From the NCBI RefSeq assembly GCF_045037415.1, contig NZ_CP173438.1: a stretch of DNA of 64,000 nt; one strand, 5' to 3'. The notes under the pieces are model-generated. The model was given only the letters and a program-made list of their open reading frames with translations. It did no database searches and had not been told where the DNA came from. The position numbers were made by a program, and so were the translations under genes. How positions within the stretch are numbered: position 1 is the first letter of the stretch; each line of letters begins with the position of its first letter. This stretch comes from Escherichia coli (GTDB lineage Bacteria > Pseudomonadota > Gammaproteobacteria > Enterobacterales > Enterobacteriaceae). Shown piece after piece: positions 51,289 through 51,421 of the stretch.

Positions 51289-51380
51289 AGCTGCTTTCCT
51301 GATGCAAAAACGAGGCTAGTTTACCGTATCTGTGGGGGGATGGCTTGTAGATATGACGACAGGAAGAGTTTATAGAAACG

Positions 51381-51408
51381 CAAAAGGCCCAGTCTTCCGA
51401 CTGGGCCT
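51381..51408 (-). terminator. rrnB-position operon terminator (single hairpin)
   Basis: Minus-strand RNA forms AAAGGCCCAGTCGGAAGACTGGGCCTTTTGCG directly after the 5S gene; murB starts about 90 nt further on. Confidence 0.7.
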
Positions 51409-51421
51409 TTCGCTTAATTTG

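Follow-up and report, generated by a model that had tools for sequence, protein, structure and literature searches.

The 133 nt that separate the 5S rRNA gene of the rrnB-position operon from murB, exactly positions 51289-51421 of the window (the whole 64-kb stretch of DNA analysed here), are likely to be the native Rho-independent terminator of this operon in Escherichia coli of the B2/ST131 type. On this reading, the T1 terminator and tRNA-linked repeat (TLR) that K-12 carries at the same junction would be a secondary module, and the T1-like stem of the single hairpin in the window would be a cassette homogenised by gene conversion. The terminator of the window is the ordinary, lineage-typical rrnB end for ST131-type E. 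coli and is unusual only when placed beside that of K-12.

The rrnB end in the window

Two rRNA operons lie on the minus strand of the window, one at the rrnB and one at the rrnE position. The features that bear on the following discussion are:

54991-56532, minus strand: 16S rRNA gene of the rrnB-position operon
51642-54545, minus strand: 23S rRNA gene of the rrnB-position operon
51422..51541, minus strand: 5S rRNA gene of the rrnB-position operon (rrfB), mature length 120 nt, ends read from the sequence
51412..51421, minus strand: 3' trailer CAAATTAAGC between the 5S gene and the hairpin, read from the sequence
51380..51413, minus strand: terminator hairpin GCGAAAGGCCCAGTC-GGAA-GACTGGGCCTTTTGC, then GTTTCT, located by terminator scan
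51374..51385, minus strand: U-rich tract TTTTGCGTTTCT, the first bases of which double as an A:U extension of the stem
51289..51373, minus strand: rrnB-specific downstream DNA as far as the murB ATG
50260..51288, minus strand: murB (UDP-N-acetylmuramate dehydrogenase), a 342-aa ORF with its ATG at 51288
11247-11362, minus strand: 5S rRNA gene at the rrnE position

The 5S gene is matched by Rfam family RF00001 at 51424-51539 with 93.2 bits, and in identical genomes the rrfB region carries the rrf annotation and the adjacent reading frame that of murB. Homologues of murB, 76-98% identical, occupy the same position in 80 species.

The hairpin begins 9 nt past the mature 3' end of the 5S RNA. It shares the strand of the 16S-23S-5S genes and has a separate gene downstream. 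Its 15-bp stem consists of 12 Watson-Crick pairs, one G-U pair, and two further Watson-Crick pairs, is closed by a GGAA tetraloop, and includes a GC-rich core of 9 bp (GGCCCAGTC/GACTGGGCC, 51386-51407). Terminator scan and folds agree on this as the single terminator-like site on the transcribed strand within the 133 nt. The hairpin is found in both the minimum free energy and the centroid fold, with a predicted energy of -30.2 kcal/mol and a z-score of -3.2 for the region. Perfect Watson-Crick hairpins with stems of at least 12 bp occur only twice in the 64-kb window, compared with a mean of 0.07 in shuffled sequences, and the hairpin at rrnB is therefore real rather than a chance occurrence. 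The other such hairpin lies at 4595-4625 (ATATTGAGCGGC-ACCATCC-GCCGCTCAATAT).

On the 3' side of the GC core, the tract UUUUGCGUUUCU contains at least five T residues within 8 nt, the threshold applied in the scan. It is broken by GCG, its quality is moderate, and its first U residues are able to pair into the stem. The window allele has one T fewer in this tract than almost all other alleles; a bulge is thereby lost, and the hairpin of the ST131 allele is in consequence predicted to be the most stable of the set compared. The site brings together the features by which intrinsic terminators are recognized in sequence, namely a stable GC-rich hairpin, a U-rich tract 3' to it, and a position on the transcribed strand where a transcription unit ends. 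We infer that, just before the U-rich tract, the nascent RNA would form this GC-rich and very stable hairpin, closed by its GGAA tetraloop, and that RNA polymerase would let the transcript go about 40-50 nt past the 5S sequence. Transcription of the rrn operon would thereby be kept from entering murB-birA, genes that are preceded by a conserved block of their own. A second role is suggested by what is established of 5S maturation. RNase E cleaves 9S RNA, and the trailer CAAATTAAGC is presumably the single-stranded A/U-rich segment at which 3' processing of 5S takes place, while the hairpin would probably serve also as the 3' structure, or stem, of the 5S precursor.

Comparison between species lends support to the assignment. 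In every species that could be resolved, this site forms a perfect stem, 11 bp or longer and capped by a tetraloop; the stem sequences differ, and the motif TTTTTGCGT(T/C)T that follows the hairpin is kept across genera regardless of the sequence of the stem. Among 32 distinct sequences, 97.7% of cells are paired, a percentage inflated by the selection of the hairpins with a hairpin finder, and 9 of the 11 pairs have changed on both sides. The covariation score is 0.536, as against 0.218 for shuffled sequences and at most 0.18 for slid controls. Examples of compensatory change include the CGGTC/GACCG of E. albertii and the replacement of G-C by A-U in AF22. Such strong covariation of the stem across species indicates a structure under selection and supports the view that what is selected may be an intrinsic terminator.

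Between the U-tract and murB lie 85 nt that are invariant in all E. coli terminator haplotypes. Within them (51289-51373) is a conserved block, ACAAGCC...ATACGGTAAACTA...TTTTGCATCAGGAAAGC, with TAAACT at 51318-51323, and the block is partly conserved and recognisable in Citrobacter, Klebsiella, Enterobacter, and other genera. This conservation suggests that murB has its own promoter or leader whichever terminator precedes it, and the block is a probable murB promoter/5' UTR, judged from its sequence. A sigma-70 scan of the window flagged no site in the block.

Comparison with the tandem terminators of K-12

The alignment with K-12 MG1655 that the preliminary description of this region had proposed as a check gives a 5S-murB distance of 133 nt in the window and of 300 nt in K-12, where the interval contains T1, a 5S remnant, and T2. 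The two intervals thus differ in both length and sequence, and the description's account of a compact gap with one hairpin in place of the K-12 tandem is borne out, as is the sequence that it quoted. The extra 168 nt of K-12 start at the 5S end, take in T1 and a spacer, and reach as far as a second copy of the 3' end of 5S. The last 132 nt of the K-12 interval are nearly identical to the 133 nt of the window, the apex of the hairpin excepted. The parts of the terminator match those of K-12 as follows:

Left flank (CAAATTAAGC): 8/10 with K-12 T1, 10/10 with K-12 T2
26-nt hairpin: 24/26 with K-12 rrnB T1, 25/26 with rrnA T1, 16/26 with K-12 T2
Right flank: 22/31 with K-12 T1, 30/31 with K-12 T2

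The earlier view of this terminator as a hybrid, with a T1-like stem set between T2-like flanks, is therefore correct.

T1 of K-12 rrnB was reportedly described by Brosius and colleagues in 1981. The hairpin of the window is nearly the same as that of T1 and stands in the same place, right after the 5S trailer, with a G-rich tetraloop stem and an A:U extension. It differs from T1 in having a perfect stem, with C-G where T1 has a U-G wobble, in two of the ten positions of the left flank, and above all in what follows: T2-type U-tract and rrnB-specific DNA in the window, but UUUCGUUUUAUCUGUUGUUUGUC and then the TLR after T1. With K-12 T2 the relationship is reversed. The window terminator occupies the same genomic slot, that of the last hairpin before murB, and shares with T2 an identical left flank, the stem feet AAGGCC/GGCCTT, and a near-identical U-tract and downstream DNA, the T-run of the window being one base shorter. 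The apical 14-16 nt, in contrast, are unrelated, CCAGTC-GGAA-GACTGG in the window compared with ATCC-TGAC-GGAT in T2.

The segment that is absent from the window relative to K-12 is a described sRNA gene, rrB. In the parts of Stenum et al. (2021, PMC8144298; citing Rudd 1999) that deal with the element, the TLR is the sequence between T1 and T2 of K-12 rrnA, rrnB, and rrnD, its copies there being rrA, rrB, and rrF, and it is defined by a repetition, over 18-19 bp, of the 3' end of the RNA gene that precedes it. The three genes are expressed by read-through of T1, and processing of the transcripts yields species of about 173 and about 115 nt, to which Hfq and CsrA bind. Termination in K-12 amounts to 87% at T1 and 100% at T2 (Orosz et al. 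1991, cited in PMC8144298), and of the seven K-12 operons, four end in just one terminator. The same source describes the element as old and widespread in Enterobacterales, stresses its conservation, terms the purpose of the dual terminator puzzling, and notes the wide use of rrnB T1 in cloning vectors; its relevant parts make no mention of E. coli lineages without the TLR.

The window differs from K-12 because its lineage lacks this 168-bp module of T1 and TLR, and the locus can be regarded as an empty-site allele of rrB. Terminator scan and folds of the 133 nt found no second tandem hairpin after the 5S gene, and no second 18-bp copy of the 5S 3' end was found about 150 bp downstream: the anchor CTGCCAGGCATCAAAT is present once at the window locus and twice in K-12. 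A BLAST search of the window with the TLR core (RrB-short, 109 nt; word size 7) returned only chance matches, with E values of at least 0.75. Rfam has no family that covers the K-12 TLR at gathering score, the sole match being a sub-threshold one to RtT (RF00391, 17 bits, E 0.84), and is therefore unusable for scoring presence or absence of the element. At the rrnD end of O157:H7 strain F8092B (about 856-1080 of the extracted locus), the TLR remnant copies the CAGACAT variant of rrfF rather than the usual CAGGCAT, from which it follows that each TLR mirrors the gene immediately upstream.

Distribution in E. coli and related genera

The frequency of the K-12 arrangement was assessed in 5,426 complete E. 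coli genomes by means of a query extending from the K-12 TLR into the rrnB-specific DNA downstream of it, with a coverage of at least 80%. The arrangement is present at rrnB in 2,516 of these genomes (46%), so that the compact form is in a slight majority there; rrB is missing at rrnB in about 54%. At least four haplotypes can be distinguished by alignment at the rrnB end:

Haplotype 1: tandem, as in K-12 and O111
Haplotype 2: compact, with a T2 hairpin directly after the true 5S (DJH_183sputum type)
Haplotype 3: compact, with a T1-type core (the window, with a TTTT run, and ECONIH2, with TTTTT)
Haplotype 4: T1-type variant with a compensatory change of G-C to A-U (AF22)

From 40 evenly spaced rows of the results, about four of which were of the T2 type, the compact T1-type form is estimated at about 43% of genomes and the compact T2-type form at about 10%. 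Over 361 nt, the window is 100% identical to the complete ST131-type genomes 4/1-1, ST-131, Esc9, and EC958. Phylogroups were taken from named strains only (ST131, B2; O157:H7, E; K-12, A; O111, O103, and O121, B1).

The loss, or original absence, of the repeat extends beyond rrnB. The TLR core is detectable in 4,013 of the 5,426 genomes, and 1,413 (26%) have no detectable copy of the rrA, rrB, or rrF core. ST131-type genomes lack the TLR at rrnA (strain 4/1-1), at rrnB, and at rrnD (EC958). In EC958, a TLR-containing query matched one place only, and the rrnD end is compact, reading rrfF-CAAATCAGGC-GAAAGGCCATCCGAAAGGATGGCC-TTTTTGC and then passing straight into yhdZ. O157:H7 keeps the TLR at rrnD only. 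The absence of the whole RrA/B/F family from 26% of complete E. coli genomes seems to be undescribed, no account of TLR-free lineages of the species having been found in the searchable literature.

These frequencies put the K-12 tandem, a textbook reference and a very common plasmid part, in a different light: it is not the norm of the species, it is rare at this junction in related genera, and the dual terminator together with RrB is a polymorphic accessory in E. coli. Genomes free of RrA, RrB, and RrF, including those of pandemic ST131, amount to natural knock-outs that limit how essential these sRNAs can be, and their existence agrees with the weak phenotypes seen when all three genes are deleted in the laboratory. 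It could be argued instead that for ST131, and for about one E. coli genome in four, the loss of the three sRNA genes has not been neutral, a growth-rate-coupled input to the CsrA/Hfq network having been dropped while the unusually stable, bulge-free single hairpin, with its one T deleted and -30.2 kcal/mol, compensates by keeping read-through out of murB-birA. We regard this as quite unlikely; if it were true, lineages would differ by a regulatory switch, set by whether or not they carry the dual terminator, and the existence of dual terminators on rrn operons could be explained in part from the natural knock-outs.

Related species were sampled by a MurB-anchored scan with one genome per species, which gave 80 loci and returned none from Salmonella or E. 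fergusonii. About 26 of the 80 could not be resolved, their contigs breaking before the junction. The resolvable loci comprise about 44 that are compact, one hairpin following a true 5S, and about five that contain a 5S remnant and are therefore tandem, namely those of C. portucalensis, Kluyvera genomosp. 3, two Enterobacter, and possibly Phytobacter diazotrophicus. Nine of the assemblies are long or complete, and among these seven loci are compact, one is tandem, and one has two hairpins without a remnant. All three resolvable Escherichia lineages classed as non-coli (E. whittamii, Escherichia sp. E1V33, and E. coli E69) are compact. The commonest stem at the murB junction is of the T2 type, GGCC(C)ATCC-NNNN-GGAT(G)GGCC, and a T1-type core occurs in compact context in E. 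whittamii, E. albertii (CGGTC/GACCG), C. amalonaticus ku-bf3, Kosakonia oryzendophytica, and a Pluralibacter MAG.

By parsimony, the ancestral rrfB-murB junction was probably one hairpin directly after the 5S gene, as judged from a sample that contains many broken draft contigs and neither Salmonella nor E. fergusonii. The T1 and TLR module of K-12 would then be a later insertion upstream of a resident T2-type terminator. The preliminary description had implicitly taken K-12 as the ancestral reference, a direction that is rendered doubtful by the compact majority within E. coli and by the compact state of about 44 of about 49 resolvable outgroup loci. The age and wide distribution of the TLR nevertheless make repeated loss a real alternative to gain.

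Two loci depart from either plan. In Enterobacter sp. JUb54, the DNA upstream of murB has a T1-type hairpin and, about 60 nt away, one of the T2 type, and the sequence in between contains no 5S remnant; this dual terminator lacks a recognisable TLR, and the repeat has possibly decayed. In Escherichia sp. MOD1-EC7003 (1-421 of the extracted locus), the stretch from the rrn end to murB contains rrnA-type sequence after T2, a REP-like element, and the start of a transposase-like ORF (MDEKQLQALANELAK...), and represents a different rearrangement of the same junction.

Origin of the hairpin cassette

A T1-like stem at a site with T2-like surroundings requires an explanation, and the most economical one is provided by cassettes that are shared between rrn operons and homogenised. 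In strain 4/1-1, which is ST131-like, the end of rrnA carries an identical 5S-CAAATTAAGC-GAAAGGCCCAGTCGGAAGACTGGGCC cassette and diverges from rrnB only after TTTT(T)GC. The 34-nt hairpin is found at six places per genome in window-like strains. K-12, for its part, has the whole T1-TLR-T2 module in common between rrnA and rrnB. The rrnE end in the window and the rrnD end of EC958 carry other hairpin cassettes. The identity of the rrnA and rrnB cassettes in ST131-type genomes points to homogenisation among rrn operons. The ends of these operons would draw on a small number of hairpin cassettes that are swapped and homogenised along with the rRNA genes by gene conversion, and the concerted evolution of the operons would thus reach through the terminator hairpin and end at the U-tract.

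Other signs of exchange are seen in the 16S-23S spacers, which are swapped with respect to K-12. The rrnB spacer of the window encodes tRNA-Ile (54846-54922) and tRNA-Ala (54728-54803), where that of K-12 rrnB encodes tRNA-Glu; in strain 4/1-1 the rrnA spacer encodes tRNA-Glu, where that of K-12 rrnA encodes tRNA-Ile and tRNA-Ala. These swaps are further evidence of exchange between rrnA and rrnB. Against conversion stands the extent of homology on the 3' side: the T1-type stem and the site-specific DNA have only about 7-11 nt in common there (GGCCTTT..GC), a very short stretch for a RecA-dependent process.

The second rRNA operon of the window follows the same plan as the other single-terminator rrn ends of K-12, with one hairpin and a U-tract after the 5S gene or distal tRNA. 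Its end (11196-11245, minus strand) has a single terminator, AAAAACCCCGGTC-AATAA-GGCCGGGGTTTTTT, directly before a yjaA-like ORF. The stem of this rrnE terminator, CCCCGGTC-AATAA-GGCCGGGG, differs from that at rrnB, and rrnE was rejected as the donor of the rrnB hairpin since the two stems are unrelated. A stem like that of rrnE is used at the murB junction of Citrobacter sp. 18056. An apparent copy of the hairpin outside the rrn operons, near 460 kb in K-12-like records, was also discarded, as it proved to be rrnD in records with a shifted origin.

An alternative to conversion that deserves consideration, though we judge it unlikely, is that a tandem ancestor underwent a slippage deletion between the GGCCTTT stem feet of T1 and T2. 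This would have fused the T1 hairpin to the U-tract of T2, and the left flank would have passed from TAAAAC to TTAAGC later, by mutation or conversion. The 7-nt microhomology that it requires, GGCCTTT, is present in K-12, and the exact product is seen at the rrnA end of strain mip270_22, which consists of the T1 flank CAAATAAAAC, CCCAGTC-GGAA-GACTGGG, TTTTTGC, and rrnA-specific DNA. Left flanks across the species also grade through AAAAC, AAAGC, TAAGC, and TTAGC. However, the left flank of the window is of the T2 type at 10/10 positions, so that two more substitutions are needed, and a tandem ancestor must be supposed at rrnB in lineages of which all the resolvable relatives are compact; the downstream SNP alternatives CTATAAAC and CTACAAAC bear on the question of tandem sister lineages. 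Nor can slippage yield the arrangement of E. whittamii, in which a 5' foot of the T2 type, AGAAGGC, lies under an apex of the T1 type.

The preliminary description had looked instead to the short repeats on either side of the 5S remnant and to recombination between them, and this does not withstand comparison with the expected product. A K-12-like tandem ancestor would lose T1 and the remnant if its two 18-bp copies of the 5S 3' end underwent homologous recombination. The direct repeats do exist in K-12, both in its sequence and in the account given in the relevant parts of PMC8144298, and the expected product, or its pre-insertion equivalent, is found at rrnB in genomes of the DJH_183sputum type and at rrnD of EC958 when compared with O157:H7. 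What such an event leaves behind, however, is the T2 hairpin, GGCCATCC-TGAC-GGATGGCC, and the stem of the window matches T2 at 16/26 positions compared with 24-25/26 for T1. A stem that is T1-like and not T2-like contradicts recombination in a single step; at least one extra event would be needed, and the outgroups argue against the K-12 state as ancestral. We therefore hold this origin to be very improbable. That the compact interval is an assembly artefact, in which repeated 5S ends have collapsed, is scarcely conceivable: repeats at rrn ends do break draft assemblies, and most contigs of the MurB scan stop there, but the 361-nt region is unchanged in the four independent complete genomes named above, about 2,900 complete genomes are without the K-12 arrangement, and complete genomes from other genera have the compact junction too.

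Homogenisation of shared cassettes among rrn operons thus remains the reading that we prefer for the T1-like stem. The 5S genes themselves show a small difference from those of K-12. Both copies in the window read GGCGGCCTTAGCG near the 5' end (51525-51535 and 11348-11358, minus strand), where K-12 and other Escherichia copies have CCGTAGCG, CAGTAGCG, or CACTAGCG, and this looks like ordinary 5S microheterogeneity.
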